From an uncultured virus (IMG/VR IMGVR_UViG_3300016471_000568) (lineage: Duplodnaviria > Heunggongvirae > Uroviricota > Caudoviricetes), in IMG/VR virus record IMGVR_UViG_3300016471_000568: a stretch of DNA of 64,000 bases; one strand, 5' to 3'. Made by a program: the position numbers and the translations under genes. The notes beneath the pieces were generated by a model. The model was not told where the DNA came from. It worked only from the letters and a program-made list of their open reading frames with translations, and did not search any database. Below, in pieces: positions 3,277 through 11,481 of the stretch. Each line of letters opens with the position of its first letter. Position 1 is the stretch's first letter.

Positions 3277-3309
3277 TGCATATATTTATTATAAAAATAG
3301 GAAACTAAA

Positions 3310-3885
3310 ATGGCAACATGGAAAAAAGTTGCAGTATCGGGCAGTAACATATCACAATTTGCTAACGATGCCGGATACGTAACAAACATAAGTGCAATTT
3401 CTTCATCGGTATTATCAAGTCCAGGACAGGGCCAAGCTGTATTAGTCAACAACGGTGTCTCTGGATCAATCGTAGATTTAGGATTAGAAACTGGAGATTC
3501 TCCTACATTTGTTGGATTAACGCTTACGGGTGATTTGACTGTACAAGGTACAGCTTCATTTCAAAACACGCAAAATTTACTAGTAGCAGATCGATTCGTA
3601 TTATTTGCATCTGGATCAAATATCGATGGCGACGGTGGTATTGTAGTACAACAAGATACTCAAAACGTTGGTGTGTTATATGGTTATAATTCAATGTTCA
3701 ATCGTTGGGGGTTTACTTCATCATTTGATGCAACGGGCAACTCATTTACGCCAGCAGCATACGTAGGAGCAGCAGAAGCCAGTCTAGGAGCACCAAATGC
3801 AGATCCAAAATATGGTGGTGCAAGTGCAGGATACGGAACAATATATGTTGACCAAGCAACCGGAGATATTTATATTTACGCATAA
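3310..3885 (+). CDS. Virion structural/fibre-associated protein (WKKVxVSGS N-terminus)
   Basis: Preceded by ATATTTAT motif and AGGA; LTLTGDLTVQGT...NLLVADRF fibre-like segment. Confidence 0.6.
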   Translation: MATWKKVAVSGSNISQFANDAGYVTNISAISSSVLSSPGQGQAVLVNNGVSGSIVDLGLETGDSPTFVGLTLTGDLTVQGTASFQNTQNLLVADRFVLFASGSNIDGDGGIVVQQDTQNVGVLYGYNSMFNRWGFTSSFDATGNSFTPAAYVGAAEASLGAPNADPKYGGASAGYGTIYVDQATGDIYIYA

Positions 3886-3897
3886 AAACAACAAGTT

Positions 3898-4074
3898 ATG
3901 AGCATACTAGACAAATTAAAATCACACCCTAAACCAGAATCAAACAATCAATTAACAAAACAAGAAATTGAATTTTTATTGGTTTTACTCAAAGACGTAT
4001 CCATTCGCGGAGAGCATGTAGAAACATTTTACAACATCATATTGAAATTACAAGAACAATACGTAAAACAGTAA
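3898..4074 (+). CDS. Small hypothetical protein, 58 aa (not in the ORF track)
   Basis: Read directly: MSILDKLKSHPKPESNNQLTKQEIEFLLVLLKDVSIRGEHVETFYNIILKLQEQYVKQ*; fills the intergenic gap; AAGTTATG start context shared with other genes. Confidence 0.7.
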   Translation: MSILDKLKSHPKPESNNQLTKQEIEFLLVLLKDVSIRGEHVETFYNIILKLQEQYVKQ

Positions 4075-4085
4075 TATTTATATTA

Positions 4086-4151
4086 AATGTTGTTGGCCGC
4101 AAGGAAGTGGGCACACGCACGGCATAAGTGTTTGTAACCAACCGCAGCATT
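4086..4151 (+). ncRNA. Putative structured cis-regulatory RNA (three-way junction, GNRA hairpin) in 5' leader of a tail-fibre gene
   Basis: GC-rich non-coding stretch. AATGTTGT(4086-93) pairs with GCAGCATT(4144-51); CC-GCAA-GG hairpin (4097-4104); ACACGCAC(4113-20)/GTGTTTGT(4128-35) stem; TGG(4108-10)/CCA(4138-40). Lies between a late-type motif (4074-82) and the RBS/ATG (4166). Confidence 0.55.
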
Positions 4152-4165
4152 AACAAGGAAACAAT

Positions 4166-5032
4166 ATGCCAAACTGGAAAAAAGTCATCGTATCAGGTTC
4201 TGATGCTGCGTTAAATTCACTATATGCATCGAGCATTACTGGCTCACTACTCGGAACTGCGTCGTATGCTGCAAATGGCGGAGTAACCCAATTATTAGCA
4301 GGCTCTAATATTACTTTATCTCCAACAAATGGTAAAGGACAAGTAACTATTACATCGACAGGGGGTGGTCCAAACTTCAACACAGCAACAGGATCATATG
4401 GTAGTTTTTACGATACTACAACCCAAACAAACCCAGTAGCTAATGTAGCTCGGTCAATGTCTTTTGATTCAACCGACATTACAAATGGCGTATCAATTTC
4501 AGGTTCAACATCACCATATAACACGTACATTAAAACTGAAAATGCTGGAGTATACGACATTCAATTTTCAGCTCAGTTAGATAAAACAGATTCAGGAAAT
4601 GATGATATATTTATTTGGCTAAGAAAAAATGGTATAGACCTAACCGACACAGCAACAAAAGTTACTTTATCGGGCAATAATGATAAAGATGTAGCAGCAT
4701 GGAACTGGTTTGTAAACTCAGCAGCAAATGATTATTATCAAATTATGTGGTCTTCACCTGATACACACGTAAGATTATTTGCTGAAACCGCCGGAGGAGG
4801 ACACCCAGGTATTCCTTCGGTAATACTAACAGTAAATCGAGTAGATCAGTTTTTAAGCAACACAGGATCATTTACGGGTTCATTTACAGGAACGTTAATA
4901 GGTACGGCTTCATATGCATCTCAAGCATTGTCAAGTTCATTTGCCGTAACAGCATCATATGCCTTATCTTCTGCAGGTGGACCTGGAGGCGACACAACAG
5001 CCGTTGAAGCACAAACATGGTTTTTAATGTAA
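4166..5032 (+). CDS. Tail fibre-like structural protein (WKKVxVSGS N-terminus; BclA/C1q-like beta domain)
   Basis: MPNWKKVIVSGS; YGSFYDTTTQ...GVYDIQFSAQL...IWLRKNG domain; TGSFTGS and TASYA repeats. Confidence 0.6.
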   Translation: MPNWKKVIVSGSDAALNSLYASSITGSLLGTASYAANGGVTQLLAGSNITLSPTNGKGQVTITSTGGGPNFNTATGSYGSFYDTTTQTNPVANVARSMSFDSTDITNGVSISGSTSPYNTYIKTENAGVYDIQFSAQLDKTDSGNDDIFIWLRKNGIDLTDTATKVTLSGNNDKDVAAWNWFVNSAANDYYQIMWSSPDTHVRLFAETAGGGHPGIPSVILTVNRVDQFLSNTGSFTGSFTGTLIGTASYASQALSSSFAVTASYALSSAGGPGGDTTAVEAQTWFLM

Positions 5033-5044
5033 TAAAAGAATAAC

Positions 5045-8005
5045 ATGGCAAAAAGAAACAATAACGGGTATATTGGTAGAGTTTTTGATTTAGACATTAA
5101 GGGCGTTATTGATCTACATAAACGCAATAATACCAGGTACAAATATGACACACTAACCTATCAAGACCCGGCACTGCAATTTACGGGAATAGACCAACCT
5201 ACTGGAAGTTTATTTGCATTAGGTGTATCAAATTTCGGTTCTGGTTCTGCAGCCACAACAAGCTTGGTTAGCGGAACATTAGCCAATGTAACTATATACA
5301 CAGCCGGTACTGGTTATGCAACAAATGCTACTTTGAGTTTTTCTGGAGGTGGGGGAACTGGTGCTAATGCATATGTTTCAACATTTGCAGCAGGTGCATT
5401 AAGTGTAGTAGAACGTTTAGGATACGTTAAAGACATAGTAATAACTGATCCAGGCCAAGGTTATACATCTGCGCCTACTATGACTGTATCAGCACCCGTA
5501 ACAGCAAATAGTGTTGCTGGAGTAACAGCTATTATTTCTGCTTCAATTACAAATGGCGAATTAACCGGATATACAATACATAACACAGGAAGTAATTATC
5601 GAGCAGGTAGCAACTGGCCAACAATTACATTTAGTGGAGGTGGAGCTACACGCGCCGCAACAGCTGTTCCTGTTTTAGAATTTGGACGAAATTACACAAG
5701 TAATCCTACAGTAACAGTAACTGGTGCTGGATCGGGTGCAGTAGTTTCTGCTTCAATTGTAGGTGTATTATCTCCAACAGGAACTGTTACAACAGCAGGA
5801 GGAGGATATTCTTCGGCACCTACTATTAACATTCCTGCAACAGATGCTTTGGTTTCTGCATCTGCAACTCTAAATGCAGGTGCTTTAGATACCATTACAA
5901 TTGCAACTGGTTCTTCAACAGTTCACAATGCACCTAACATTAACATAGGAGGCGAATTAAGTTATCCTGCACTAAACAATAATGAAATTTATGGAACATA
6001 TGCAGTATATAATAATAATTCAAATTGGGTAGCTTTTAACGTGACTACTAATGGAGGAGGGGGATATACTGTGGATTGGGGTGATGGAACTTCAAATAAC
6101 TATGATACAAATGTAACAGCATCTAAGCAGTATACTACCTCTTCATATGCAGCACTTTCAAGTTCATTGTATGATGGCACTAAATTAACCCAAATAAAAA
6201 TAACACTTTCAGGTAGTGCTACATCACTAGCAACTGTAAATTTAACTACAAGACCAACCCCAACAACAGGATCATTTCCCAGTGCAACAGCACAAACAAA
6301 TCATTGGTTATCTATTGCAGCTGCTGGAACAAACATAACATCATTTACGCTTGGTGCATCAGCGACCGGAAATAATTGCACTAGTGGAATGTTACAGCGA
6401 TTTTATTTTTCTGGATCAAATCAAATAAGCAATTTTCAAGCTATGTTTTTAAACTGTTACAGCTTGCGAGAAGTAACAGAATTATACATGGGATCAGGAA
6501 GTTCGTACGGATCTACAATTTCAGGTCTTGGTATGTTTGAAAACTGTACCAACTTAATAAAGATACCAACTATAAATTTAAATTCTGCAGCTGTAAGTTT
6601 AGGGTATATGTTTAGTCAGTGTAGAAATTTACCAACAATTACATTTTTAAATTCTGAAAATATTTTTGACTATACTGCTACATTTAGTAATTGTTTGGTA
6701 TTAGAATCAATTAATGGATCTAATTTAAGTAGTCCTAACGTAACATCCTTGTCATCAACATTTAACAATTGTTTAAATTTGGTAGAATTACCTGCTATTA
6801 ATGTTACTAATGTAACTAATATGGCTAGTACTTTTCAAGCCTGCTACTCATTGACAAGCTTAAAATTTACAGGAAATACTAGCAAAGTAACAACATTTAA
6901 CTCTACATTTTTATCATGCCTTTCATTATCAGATATACCTAAAGTTATTGATGCAACATCAGCAACAACACTTGCAAGCATGTTTAATGGGTGTCGACAA
7001 CTGCAAGAAGCACCTACAATCACAAACTCAACACAAGTTACAAATGTGTCGAGTATGTTTTCTGGATGCTCTTCGCTAAGACGCGTACCTTTATTTGATA
7101 CACGATCTGTAACAACATTTGTAAGCATGTTTAATGGGTGCACATCGTTAATTTCAATACCTCGTTTTAATCTTCGAAGTGCAACTACGGTATCTAGTAT
7201 GTTTCAAAGTGCTACTACTTTAAAAACAATACCACTGCTAAACACAGCAAATGTAACAACATTTTCAAATATGTTTGTTGGCTGTTTAAGTTTAATAACT
7301 ATTCCTGCTATTAATACTGCAAAAGGGACTGCATTTGACGGCATGTTTAGTGGATGCAATGGATTAAAATTTATACCGTACTTAAATACCGGGAATGGAA
7401 CTACGTTTGCAAGCATGTTTGCTTCATGTACATTGTTGTCTGAAATTAGCACATTAGACACTTCAAACGCAACTACACTACTTAATATGTTTAATGATTG
7501 TAGATCATTAAAACGTGTACCAAATTTTAATATACCAAATTGCACATCATTACAACAAATGTTTACAAATTGTGGTACTTTAACGCAAGCCCCAACTTTT
7601 TACAATGCAAATAAGGTAACAACGATAGCTAGTATGTACAATACCTGTACATCACTTGTGCAAATACCCAGCATGTCTGGTGCTGCATTAACAAGCATAG
7701 CAAATGCATTTGCTAATTGTGGTAATTTAATTGAAATCGGAAGTATTCCATGTTCAGCTGCTGGATTAGTTACGACAACTACTCCATTTACTAGTTGCTC
7801 ATCGTTAAAACGAATGGGAATAACCAACATAAATGCATCTTTTACTGTAGCAAACTGCTCATTAGATTCAAATGCATTAAACGAAATTTATACTAATTTA
7901 TCTGCAACTGGCACCGGAAAAACTATCACTGTAACAGGAAATTGGGGTACTGCAAACGATACTCCATCAATAGCAACGACAAAAGGGTGGACAGTCAGCG
8001 GATAA
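5045..8005 (+). CDS. Large receptor-binding/tail-fibre protein with DUF285/BspA-type leucine-rich repeats
   Basis: N-terminal GxGYTSAPT repeats, YTVDWGDG PKD-like motif, then many ~22-25 aa repeats of the form VTxFxSMFxGCxSLxxIPxxNT. Confidence 0.75.
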   Translation: MAKRNNNGYIGRVFDLDIKGVIDLHKRNNTRYKYDTLTYQDPALQFTGIDQPTGSLFALGVSNFGSGSAATTSLVSGTLANVTIYTAGTGYATNATLSFSGGGGTGANAYVSTFAAGALSVVERLGYVKDIVITDPGQGYTSAPTMTVSAPVTANSVAGVTAIISASITNGELTGYTIHNTGSNYRAGSNWPTITFSGGGATRAATAVPVLEFGRNYTSNPTVTVTGAGSGAVVSASIVGVLSPTGTVTTAGGGYSSAPTINIPATDALVSASATLNAGALDTITIATGSSTVHNAPNINIGGELSYPALNNNEIYGTYAVYNNNSNWVAFNVTTNGGGGYTVDWGDGTSNNYDTNVTASKQYTTSSYAALSSSLYDGTKLTQIKITLSGSATSLATVNLTTRPTPTTGSFPSATAQTNHWLSIAAAGTNITSFTLGASATGNNCTSGMLQRFYFSGSNQISNFQAMFLNCYSLREVTELYMGSGSSYGSTISGLGMFENCTNLIKIPTINLNSAAVSLGYMFSQCRNLPTITFLNSENIFDYTATFSNCLVLESINGSNLSSPNVTSLSSTFNNCLNLVELPAINVTNVTNMASTFQACYSLTSLKFTGNTSKVTTFNSTFLSCLSLSDIPKVIDATSATTLASMFNGCRQLQEAPTITNSTQVTNVSSMFSGCSSLRRVPLFDTRSVTTFVSMFNGCTSLISIPRFNLRSATTVSSMFQSATTLKTIPLLNTANVTTFSNMFVGCLSLITIPAINTAKGTAFDGMFSGCNGLKFIPYLNTGNGTTFASMFASCTLLSEISTLDTSNATTLLNMFNDCRSLKRVPNFNIPNCTSLQQMFTNCGTLTQAPTFYNANKVTTIASMYNTCTSLVQIPSMSGAALTSIANAFANCGNLIEIGSIPCSAAGLVTTTTPFTSCSSLKRMGITNINASFTVANCSLDSNALNEIYTNLSATGTGKTITVTGNWGTANDTPSIATTKGWTVSG
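6425..7830 (+). repeat. Tandem protein-level LRR (DUF285-like) repeats
   Basis: Recurring xMFxxCxxLxxIP units in the translation; partial DNA-level similarity (AGCATGTTTAATGGGTG at ~6978 and ~7124). Boundaries approximate. Confidence 0.8.
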
Positions 8006-9012: not shown

Positions 9013-11481
9013 ATGGCAGAAAGAATAGTTTCACCTGGAGTATTTACTAGAGAAATTGATCAATCGTTTTTAGCACCGGGAATTGCTGCAATTGGTGCTG
9101 CAGTTATAGGACCAACAATAAAAGGTCCCGCATACATACCAACCACTGTTACGTCAGTTGCTGAATTTCAATCTATATTTGGAGGACATAGTGAAGAATT
9201 ATATGTTCCTTATGTAGTTGATGAATATTTTGCAAATGGTAATTCATTAACTGTTACTAGATTATTATATGAAGATGGATATCAATTAAATAATGGTGCT
9301 TTAGCAATTGTAGCAGAATCGGGATCTATTAAAGTAGTAACACATGTATTACATCCGGTGCAAGCTTGTTCAGGTAGTTCATTATTTGCTAATTCAATTT
9401 TAACTACCGGTAGCAACGGAAGTTTTGAATTAAAAATTTCCGGTTCATATTCAACGATATCAATACCTGGATTTTCTGGATTTACTTATCAAAATGGACA
9501 ACCGATATCAGCATCAATTAATTCTTCAGCAGCAGGAACATTTCCATATTTAACAAATTTATTAGGAACTTCGCCATCTAATACGGCATTTCCGGTTTAT
9601 GTGCAATATGAATATAAAAATGCATATAATTTATTTAATAATCCATCGTATATAACAGCATCGCTTCAAATCATCGATGATTATGAATTTTTACAAGATT
9701 ATAATCATGCATCAACACCGTGGATTACATCTCAATTATTTGGTGCAACAACAAAAAATCTTTTTAAATTTCATACTCTATCACATGGTACTAGCACCAA
9801 TCATGAACTTAAAATAATTATTTCAAACATTAAACATTCATCGGAAGTTATAGATCAATATCAATATGCAACATTTGATGTAACCGTTAGACGCGTTAAA
9901 AACACAGAAATTCCAAACTCACCATATGGAAACATCAATGATGATGATGTATTGAATCCAAATATTGTTGCTAGTAATACATTTGCAAATGTTAATTTGA
10001 ATCCAAATTCTCCTGATTTTATCGGACAAAGAATAGGAACAAGATATATTTCAATTGACGATTCATACAACGTATTAATTAATGGAGATTATGATAATCG
10101 ATCATCATATATTCGAGTAGAATTGGCTCCAGAAGTAACTAATAAAGCAATTAGCAATACAGCAATGCCATTTGGATTTAGAGCATTATATAGTCCAATA
10201 CCAATGTTAAGTGGTAGTACAAATATTGCATCTGCATCTTATAAAATAAATCAAACGCAACCCGGAGGTTCATATAATTCAAACATTGCTTTTGGGTTTG
10301 ATTTTAACATACAAAACAATTTAAATTATTTAGCACCCATACCAACATCTGGATCTAATACAGGCAGTAACAGTGATTTTTATTTAGGCGACATGTTTCA
10401 GCCAGCTCAAGCAAATTATCCAATATCCGTACCATACAGTGCGTCATTGCAAGCAGCACTAACCGGATCAGCTACTTCATTTGCAACAAATATTGCATTA
10501 AGTACAAGAAAATTTGCAGTTCCATTCCAAGGTGGATTTGATGGAACACGTCCAAATCTACCTAAATTTTCAGGACAAAATATTTCAGCCACTAACACAT
10601 TTGGATTTGATTGTAGCGGTACAACGACAACAGGTACTATTTCATATAGAAAAGCATTTAGCATATTATCAAATCAAGATTTGTATGATTTTAATTTGTT
10701 ATTAACTCCTGGTATACTTCATTATTATCACCCAATTGTAACAAACGAAGCTAGAAATTTAGTAACAAATCGTTCCGATGCATTTTACGTAATGGATTCG
10801 GTTGGTAAATCAGCTACCGTATCAGATGTGGTTAGTGCAGTACAAGGAATTGATAATAATTATACTGCAACATATTATCCATGGGTAAACATTAATAAAG
10901 CCACTGGCGGAACATTTTTTGTACCGCCATCTATAGTAGTTGCAGGAGCTCTTGCATTAAATGATGCAGTTCAAGCCCCATGGTTTGCTCCAGCTGGATT
11001 AAATCGAGGTGCATTAACTCAAGTAAATACATTAGCTATACAAACCGATCAAAATTCCCGAGATACATTGTATCAAGCAAGAATTAATCCAATAACAAAA
11101 TTTGCAGTTGGCGGACATTGTATTTGGGGACAAAAAACATTGCAATCATTACCTAGTGCATTGGATCGAGTCAATGTAAGAAGATTATTAATTGAAGTTA
11201 AAAAATTTATTGCATCTTCAACAAAATATTTAGTATTTGAACAAAATAGTGATGCAACTAGAGGTAAATTTTTAAATATTGTTAATCCGTATTTAGATGC
11301 AATACGTTTGCGACAAGGATTAAATGCGTTTAGAGTTGTAATGGATGCATCAAATAATACTAATGATTTGATTGATCAAAATATATTATACGGACAAATA
11401 TTTTTGCAACCAACTAGAACGGCTGAATTTATTATAATTGATTTTAATATTCAACCAACAGGTGCAGCATTTGCGGTATAA
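9013..11481 (+). CDS. Contractile tail sheath protein
   Basis: N-terminal SPGVFTREID; C-terminal PWFAPAGLNRG, INPI, WGQKTL, LDRVNVRRLL, FEQN and PTRTAEFI hallmarks. Confidence 0.95.
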   Translation: MAERIVSPGVFTREIDQSFLAPGIAAIGAAVIGPTIKGPAYIPTTVTSVAEFQSIFGGHSEELYVPYVVDEYFANGNSLTVTRLLYEDGYQLNNGALAIVAESGSIKVVTHVLHPVQACSGSSLFANSILTTGSNGSFELKISGSYSTISIPGFSGFTYQNGQPISASINSSAAGTFPYLTNLLGTSPSNTAFPVYVQYEYKNAYNLFNNPSYITASLQIIDDYEFLQDYNHASTPWITSQLFGATTKNLFKFHTLSHGTSTNHELKIIISNIKHSSEVIDQYQYATFDVTVRRVKNTEIPNSPYGNINDDDVLNPNIVASNTFANVNLNPNSPDFIGQRIGTRYISIDDSYNVLINGDYDNRSSYIRVELAPEVTNKAISNTAMPFGFRALYSPIPMLSGSTNIASASYKINQTQPGGSYNSNIAFGFDFNIQNNLNYLAPIPTSGSNTGSNSDFYLGDMFQPAQANYPISVPYSASLQAALTGSATSFATNIALSTRKFAVPFQGGFDGTRPNLPKFSGQNISATNTFGFDCSGTTTTGTISYRKAFSILSNQDLYDFNLLLTPGILHYYHPIVTNEARNLVTNRSDAFYVMDSVGKSATVSDVVSAVQGIDNNYTATYYPWVNINKATGGTFFVPPSIVVAGALALNDAVQAPWFAPAGLNRGALTQVNTLAIQTDQNSRDTLYQARINPITKFAVGGHCIWGQKTLQSLPSALDRVNVRRLLIEVKKFIASSTKYLVFEQNSDATRGKFLNIVNPYLDAIRLRQGLNAFRVVMDASNNTNDLIDQNILYGQIFLQPTRTAEFIIIDFNIQPTGAAFAV

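Follow-up and report, generated by a model that had tools for sequence, protein, structure and literature searches.

An uncatalogued family of three-way-junction RNAs forms a dedicated leader of phage tail-fibre genes

A tail-fibre-like gene of an uncultured Caudoviricetes virus is preceded by a three-way-junction RNA, which belongs to a family that is the dedicated leader of phage tail-fibre genes starting MP[NSA]WKK...SGS. The gene lies in the window, the 64,000-nt stretch of DNA analysed here. Members of the family are about 55-95 nt long, share a conserved fold encoded on the strand of the fibre gene, and are strictly linked to the fibre start and to a gene for a small protein directly upstream. 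The two collections combined yielded at least 130 distinct leader copies from viral contigs, and the family is larger than the 130 copies counted. This three-stem fibre leader is an uncatalogued family, for which no match exists in Rfam 15. As to its role, we would give a probability of about 0.5 to the reading that the RNA, as an uncatalogued and dedicated fibre leader, serves as a cis-acting translational operator, judging from sequence comparison.

The preliminary description had placed a GC-rich structured leader of a tail-fibre gene at 4074..4166, and every element it described is present there (Table 1). The spacer between the small ORF and the fibre gene (4075-4165, 91 nt) is the longest same-strand gap within the first 12 kb, and its GC content is 42% (51.5% in the folded part) versus 33% for the whole window and 3-25% for eight other spacers. 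All nine exact copies of ATATTTATA in the window are on the + strand, and copies are located 14-25 nt ahead of the ATGs at 3310, 3898, 8041, 9013, 11550, 44473, and 63518, whereas the distance between motif and ATG is 84 nt at the fibre gene. Subtracting the 66-nt fold from the fibre leader leaves 18 nt, which is normal for the late genes of this phage, and the RNA thus looks like a 66-nt insert within an otherwise ordinary late leader. The fibre-like paralog provides an internal contrast, as it has the promoter-like motif (at 3282, 20 nt ahead of its ATG) but not the RNA. The sequence ATATTTAT(A) is found on the + strand at 3282, 3866, 4074, 8019, 8983, 11520, 44440, and 63485, upstream of structural-gene starts, and is probably the late promoter element of the window phage. 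AAGGAG-like sequences also occur at several motif-preceded genes, e.g. the tail sheath gene at 9013. Scans for terminators and sigma-70 promoters around the fibre locus gave nothing relevant. The 288-aa fibre-like protein matches no Pfam family, and its relatives are annotated with C1q-like or cerebellin-like tips. In the gene that follows it, the DUF285 repeats at 6948-7500 correspond to a 72/144-nt periodic repeat family in the DNA.

Table 1. Features of the fibre locus in the window, elements of the RNA fold, and endonuclease ORFs at related loci (L numbers denote loci)
Feature	Position	Strand	Remarks
191-aa fibre-like paralog, similar N-terminus MATWKKVAVSGS	3310..3885	+	
58-aa small ORF	3898..4074	+	just upstream of the RNA; conserved helical-hairpin protein family
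ATATTTATA, late-promoter-like motif	4074..4082	+	putative promoter role
Structured RNA, three-way junction	4086-4151	+	66 nt; MFE fold and comparison
P1 outer stem, 8 bp including two G-U	4086-4093 with 4144-4151	+	MFE fold
Bulged U	4094	+	MFE fold
P1 inner pairs	G4095, G4096 with C4143, C4142	+	MFE fold
P2 hairpin CC-GCAA-GG	4097-4104	+	
Junction J2/3, AAG	4105-4107	+	
P3 arm	4108-4140	+	base U-G-G/C-C-A, 4108-4110 with 4138-4140
P3 bulge	A4136, A4137	+	
P3 inner stem	4111-4118 with 4128-4135	+	
P3 loop ACGGCAUAA	4119-4127	+	
J3/1	A4141	+	followed by P1 3' strand C4142, C4143, 4144-4151
Unpaired linker, 14 nt	4152..4165	+	SD-like AAGGA at 4155-4159
288-aa tail-fibre-like gene, starts MPNWKKVIVSGS	4166..5032	+	MPNWKK class
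986-aa protein gene after fibre, six DUF285 repeats	5045-8005		Pfam E 1.6e-51
NUMOD1 + GIY-YIG-like ORFs, 238-241 aa	L011:2126-2848, L012:2203-2916, L013		
HNH ORF, 81 aa	L093:1243-1485	-	

The closing stem of 8 bp with G-U pairs, the GCAA hairpin, and the long second arm described before are the elements of the minimum free energy (MFE) fold, and they are supported across relatives. Folding of a single sequence was rejected as proof of structure on either strand as it performed no better than shuffles: the window sequence alone gave a z score of -0.66, 51 of 200 shuffles folded at least as well, and the minus strand of the element folded about as well as the + strand.

Relatives were collected along two routes. 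A protein search of viral contigs gave 80 loci with relatives of the 288-aa fibre protein, and the same leader, with clear compensatory changes, is found upstream of those relatives that start with MPNWKK. Using the core-strand pattern GGAAGTRGRC...GTAWCYAAYC we obtained at least 120 viral loci, from which chance pattern matches (L126, L144, L164, L185, and L204) were left out; each remaining locus has an MP[NSA]WKK ORF within about 12-25 nt or is cut at the locus end. Alignment A2, generated with MAFFT and not fitted to a structure, contains 115 distinct sequences including the window. A second set was chosen by the coding pattern ATGCCNAAYTGGAARAAR alone, the first 100 matching loci being examined, and the RNA copies of this gene-first set make up alignment A5. 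The covariance model R1 describes the family by the core GGAAGURGGC...GUAWCYAACC, three covarying helices, and an end 12-25 nt before the MP[NSA]WKK start. It matches the window copy over its full length (4072-4159) with 61.7 bits and an E value of 1.8e-13, values that hold partly by construction as the window is in the seed; membership of the window copy is also evident from direct reading against its relatives. Within the 64-kb window the model has a single match.

The preliminary description had proposed to look for covariation upstream of MPNWKK-type homologs, and the outcome was strongly positive in both alignments. RNAalifold recovered the three-way junction from the 115 distinct sequences, with standard pairs in 95.9% of the cells of A2 versus 82.9% after column shuffling; none of 500 shuffles reached 95.9%, a significance that is overstated because shuffle controls ignore sequence relatedness. 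Sliding the 3' partners is, together with counting pair types, the safer control: the covariation score of A2 is 0.414, compared with 0.174 for shuffled columns and 0.04-0.11 after a displacement of the partners by 1-3 columns. Double changes are present at 11 of 18 pairs, and at seven of eight among the P1 pairs. A structure-blind ranking by mutual information with average-product correction placed helix pairs at all top six ranks. As A2 had been selected by the RNA core, the test was repeated on the loci selected by coding pattern, giving 96.5% paired cells versus 83.6%, a score of 0.420 versus 0.181, and double changes at 12 of 18 pairs in A5, an alignment that is fitted to the covariance model and hence biased towards structure.

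With one bulged nucleotide permitted, and only then, outer P1 reaches 5-8 bp in most members. The P2 hairpin comes in 65 distinct sequences with a mean uninterrupted stem of 4.25 bp, compared with 2.5 bp when the inner bases are shuffled, and its third pair is C-G in 46, U-A in 36, and U-G in 9 cases. For inner P3 there are 76 distinct hairpins with a mean stem of 4.6 bp versus 2.6 bp after shuffling. Both hairpins vary freely in sequence and length across the family and yet close far better than shuffled sequences, ruling out that the conservation reflects coding. The strand is given by conserved G-U pairs, which are found at one pair in 108 of 115 sequences and as U-G at another in 47, indicating that the RNA is made from the strand of the fibre gene.

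At the base of P3 the middle pair of UGG/CCA is G-C in 81 and A-U in 34 of the 115 sequences and is never broken, even though the search pattern also allowed G-U and A-C. This bears on the suggestion that GUUGG(4092-96) might alternatively pair with CCAAC(4138-42), competing with UGG/CCA, so that two conformations would exist. The alternative helix can indeed form in the window; across the 115 sequences, however, 78.6% of its cells are paired versus 78.2% in shuffled sequences, and the outer pair does not form in 70 of 115. Since the alternative helix shows no covariation while UGG/CCA covaries, the switch between two conformations was dropped. A further correlation exists between a base of the P3 bulge and the neighbouring pair (A2 columns 85, 119, and 121; window 4109, 4137, and 4139), the combination being A with G-C in 79 and U with A-U in 33 sequences, with three exceptions. 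This covariation possibly reflects a base triple, or else shared descent, i.e. a lineage effect.

The AAG of J2/3 is fixed by construction in the pattern-selected set. We therefore turn to the 17 true gene-first copies that lack the exact core pattern and carry the core variants GUUACC, GUAGCC, and ACCUACC: here J2/3 is AAG in 16 of 17, with GAG in L420 (L420 as the eighteenth row listed shows spacer and not RNA, and was not counted). These off-pattern copies also contain compensated changes in the opening C-G pair of inner P3 and in the second pair of P2.

The linkage between RNA and fibre gene is strict. In the gene-first set, i.e. the first 100 loci, all 76 MPNWKK..SGS genes have a covariance-model match just upstream, one of them cut at the locus end, and the RNA is found at none of the other 24 pattern matches, which are out-of-frame or unrelated. 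Likewise, only 14 of the 80 loci with fibre relatives have the RNA, exactly those that share the N-terminus. Among the 120 matches listed for bacterial and archaeal genomes there is one true copy (L292), the others being chance pattern matches. In phage records (n=50,697) the N-terminus is confined to three immuto isolates (four records). The RNA of Flavobacterium phage vB_FspM_immuto_2-6A scores 71.4 bits with the model and is located in the gap before a gene annotated 'putative tail fiber-like protein'. As in the window, the gene order in phage immuto is a MATWKKVAVSGS-type gene, small ORFs, the RNA, and the fibre gene; the region lies around MW353175.1 137,650-137,960, and the small proteins are immuto26A_217 and _218.

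The small ORFs located just upstream of the RNA also form a family. Of 101 distinct ORFs, 100 match one family profile, which was built from the same ORFs and thus detects outliers only; 45 of the 101 match the 58-aa protein of the window alone at E<0.01. The family was aligned as A3. AlphaFold2 predicts a two-helix hairpin for the window protein (pLDDT 82.9; helices 21-32 and 38-57). Scanning 87 loci plus the window, we found the small protein only where the RNA was found, a co-occurrence that may in part result from shared descent. The protein matches no Pfam or PHROG family, a PDB profile search retrieved designed helical repeats only, Foldseek returned nothing at E<=0.001, and in the Atlas search the only matches were viral clusters of hypothetical proteins. 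The small protein is often present as two tandem paralogs, as at L020:2416-2673 and 2681-2917 or at L448:7150-7350 and 7415-7648. In the com-mom system of phage Mu the product of a small upstream ORF, the zinc-finger protein Com, binds to the leader of the next gene. The fibre locus resembles it in its order of small ORF, folded leader, and target gene; RNA binding by the small protein is, however, putative here, and a Com-type Cys4 zinc finger was rejected as the window protein is free of Cys and predicted to be a two-helix hairpin, any Cys being present in just 8 of the 101 family members.

The position of the RNA relative to the start codon is nearly constant. Between the end of the core and the AUG of the same gene there are 12-25 nt in 124 of 130 copies, which makes a free-standing small RNA, the other possibility raised in the preliminary description, unlikely. 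In nearly all of 128 members 6-21 unpaired nt separate the 3' end of P1 from the AUG. Of 128 members 43 have an SD-like motif, which overlaps the P1 3' strand in 19, mainly in a subgroup whose P1 3' strand is AUAAGGAG. Upstream of P1, 100 of 128 members have a TATTTAT-like heptamer, mostly 5-11 nt away, and in the other 28 the stop codon of the upstream gene abuts P1. As these 28 RNAs are internal, following a stop codon, the RNA need not be at the 5' end of a transcript; what is retained is the short distance to the AUG. Four of the 130 copies lie at about 118 nt from the AUG. At three loci with this distance (L103, L183, and L420) the RNA is followed by an insert with a hairpin and with the sequence UAUCCAACC, which is similar to the 3' core strand and possibly a partial duplication of it.

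Some members could also contact the start codon through a hairpin loop. In the window the loop sequence GGCAUA (4121-4126) is complementary to UAUGCC (4165-4170), with -8.9 kcal/mol. Such a GGCA(U) in an enlarged loop, complementary to the invariant (A)UGCC of the start, is found in two lineages only: the freshwater group, to which the window belongs, has it on P3, and the SD-type group has it on P2. At least five Watson-Crick pairs between loop and start are possible in 38 of 115 distinct copies, and the mean longest match is 3.77 versus 2.72 for shuffled loops. Because Met-Pro is fixed, this pairing cannot covary, and the complementarity is a suggestion that loop and start codon pair. A different contact, between the invariant UUGGC and GCCAA of codons 1-3, was discarded, since visual inspection showed no correlated change between the bulge base and position three of the Pro codon (e.g. 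A facing A or C).

The assumption that the element belongs to no recognised family held in a cmscan against Rfam 15, in which neither the window nor ten relatives gave a match to it. At gathering thresholds the 4227 models gave no match in the whole window; at E<=10 the region 3900-4350 gave only a chance PreQ1 match at 3934-3969, outside the RNA element, and ten divergent relatives gave no match at E<=1. These searches include c-di-GMP-II (RF01786; window at E<=10, ten relatives at E<=1) as well as GP20-a and GP20-b (RF02991 and RF03003; window and ten relatives), none of which matched. Full-text literature searches yielded no description of this junction RNA, and the 2026 preprints checked contain neither 'phage' nor 'tail fiber' in their text. 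In phage T4, translational operators are located in the leaders of mRNAs, examples being the pseudoknot of the gene 32 leader and the operators of gene 43 and RegA. Like these, the junction RNA is a folded element on the 5' side of a leader that is short, A/U-rich, and unstructured and belongs to one phage gene, its presumed role being to set translation of that gene alone. It has no likeness to them in sequence or fold, however, and whereas the T4 operators regulate genes for nucleic-acid-binding proteins through a repressor, the junction RNA precedes a virion fibre gene for which no repressor is known. The T4 gene 32 leader operator is among the systems described in PMC10690425, a catalogue of 8,495 IMG/VR candidate RNAs. 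The main text of this catalogue does not contain 'tail' or 'fiber' and its supplement files 3-6 do not contain the core strings; the RNA may still be listed in the catalogue as an unnamed candidate. GP20-a, GP20-b, and other candidate leader motifs presented in it are orphan motifs from comparative analysis located <=~25 nt upstream of one phage gene family (PMC10690425). The junction RNA is likewise an orphan structured motif close upstream of one phage gene family, but the downstream gene, here fibre-like and not GP20, and the fold are different. New as well are the conserved small upstream protein, the two upstream contexts, the homing endonucleases at the start codon, and phage immuto as a cultured carrier.

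The constant short distance to the AUG, the SD overlap in a subgroup, and a junction that is conserved although its stems are free to change suggest a cis-acting translational operator, as does the fact that either a promoter or a stop codon may precede the RNA. The RNA would act in cis on the fibre mRNA, its junction with the conserved unpaired bases (AAG, the two-base bulge, and one A) being the docking site for a trans factor. Once the junction is held closed, P1 would limit entry of the 30S subunit because its 3' strand lies about 7-20 nt before the AUG and overlaps the SD-like motif in the subgroup, and in some lineages the block might be reinforced by a hairpin loop with complementarity to AUGCC. 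As a result, the output of fibre would be set separately from that of the other late genes. The trans factor might be the upstream small protein, its closest candidate, a guess made from gene order only. Speaking against an operator, P1 and the SD-like motif overlap in just 19 of 128 members, and in the window fold both AAGGA and the AUG are outside the junction; in addition, four of 130 copies are 118 nt away from the AUG, and the upstream protein matches no known family or fold.

A much more tentative extension of the operator reading is a three-part phage module of small helical proteins, RNA, and fibre N-terminus, in which the small protein or a ligand reporting the state of the host would dock to the junction RNA and switch an alternative receptor-binding fibre via P1 and the loop-start pairing. 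If this were true, the module would allow large Flavobacterium-type phages to tune which fibre they display, and it would represent a new class of RNA-protein or RNA-ligand regulation that is confined to virion genes.

Alternatively, the RNA might be a passive fold, 5' or intercistronic, that has no partner and either shields the fibre mRNA from decay or insulates its short A-rich initiation region from the sequence upstream. Since 100 of 128 members carry a promoter-like heptamer closely ahead of P1, the fold could cap the 5' end, and the linker following P1 is as long as ordinary late leaders are. A plain hairpin would suffice for this purpose, however, whereas the junction bases are preserved in very divergent phages whose stems differ freely, and 28 of 128 members have the RNA internally, flush with a stop codon; we regard a passive fold as doubtful. 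A riboswitch, where a small molecule bound in the junction would alter fibre translation through P1 closure according to the state of the host, appears more doubtful still. The layout is aptamer-like, with a closing P1 next to the initiation region, a conserved junction, and variable peripheral hairpins, and translational riboswitch aptamers such as c-di-GMP-II similarly have a P1-closed junction a few nt from the initiation region. The family is, however, associated with a single family of structural genes and with no gene for metabolism or transport, its context is not related to any ligand, no known riboswitch model matches, and only the one true copy is present among the 120 bacterial-genome matches listed.

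As a small junction RNA of phages that is placed between two cistrons in a subgroup, the element also brings to mind a self-cleaving ribozyme or a nuclease processing site that would separate the fibre message from the RNA upstream. The hammerhead core is a three-way junction with the strands CUGANGA and GAAA. The junction strands of the RNA described here (0 nt, AAG, and A, i.e. 0, 3, and 1 nt) are too short for such a core, and cmscan of the window and ten relatives detected neither a hammerhead nor any other ribozyme, so that we consider cleavage or processing very improbable.

Few structured RNAs are dedicated to a virion gene, and little is understood of them. The junction RNA is abundant in lake and marine phage contigs, its covariation is of textbook quality, and it is tied to a gene for host recognition. 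Flavobacterium phage immuto on Flavobacterium sp. LMO8 offers a cultured test system together with a candidate partner gene, making the control of fibre dosage in phages of Bacteroidota, bacteria which are said to make little use of Shine-Dalgarno pairing, directly testable. The RNA is also a candidate addition to RNA family libraries and a marker of the fibre module.

Finally, ORFs for homing endonucleases are inserted exactly at the fibre start codon of some relatives, with the leader RNA intact upstream (Table 1). These insertions right beside the RNA, and its location at the boundary of a shuffled fibre module, would suit a DNA-level element, i.e. a recombination or homing target or a protein-binding site that mimics a conserved RNA, but compensatory changes, conserved G-U pairs, and hairpin length variation fit an RNA fold and not a duplex DNA site, leaving this explanation the least credible of all. 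The inserted endonuclease ORFs take over the leader at the usual spacing between leader and AUG; the fibre ORF then begins anew at an (A/T)TG overlapping the stop codon of the endonuclease, and its product reads MH[NS]W(K/R)K.
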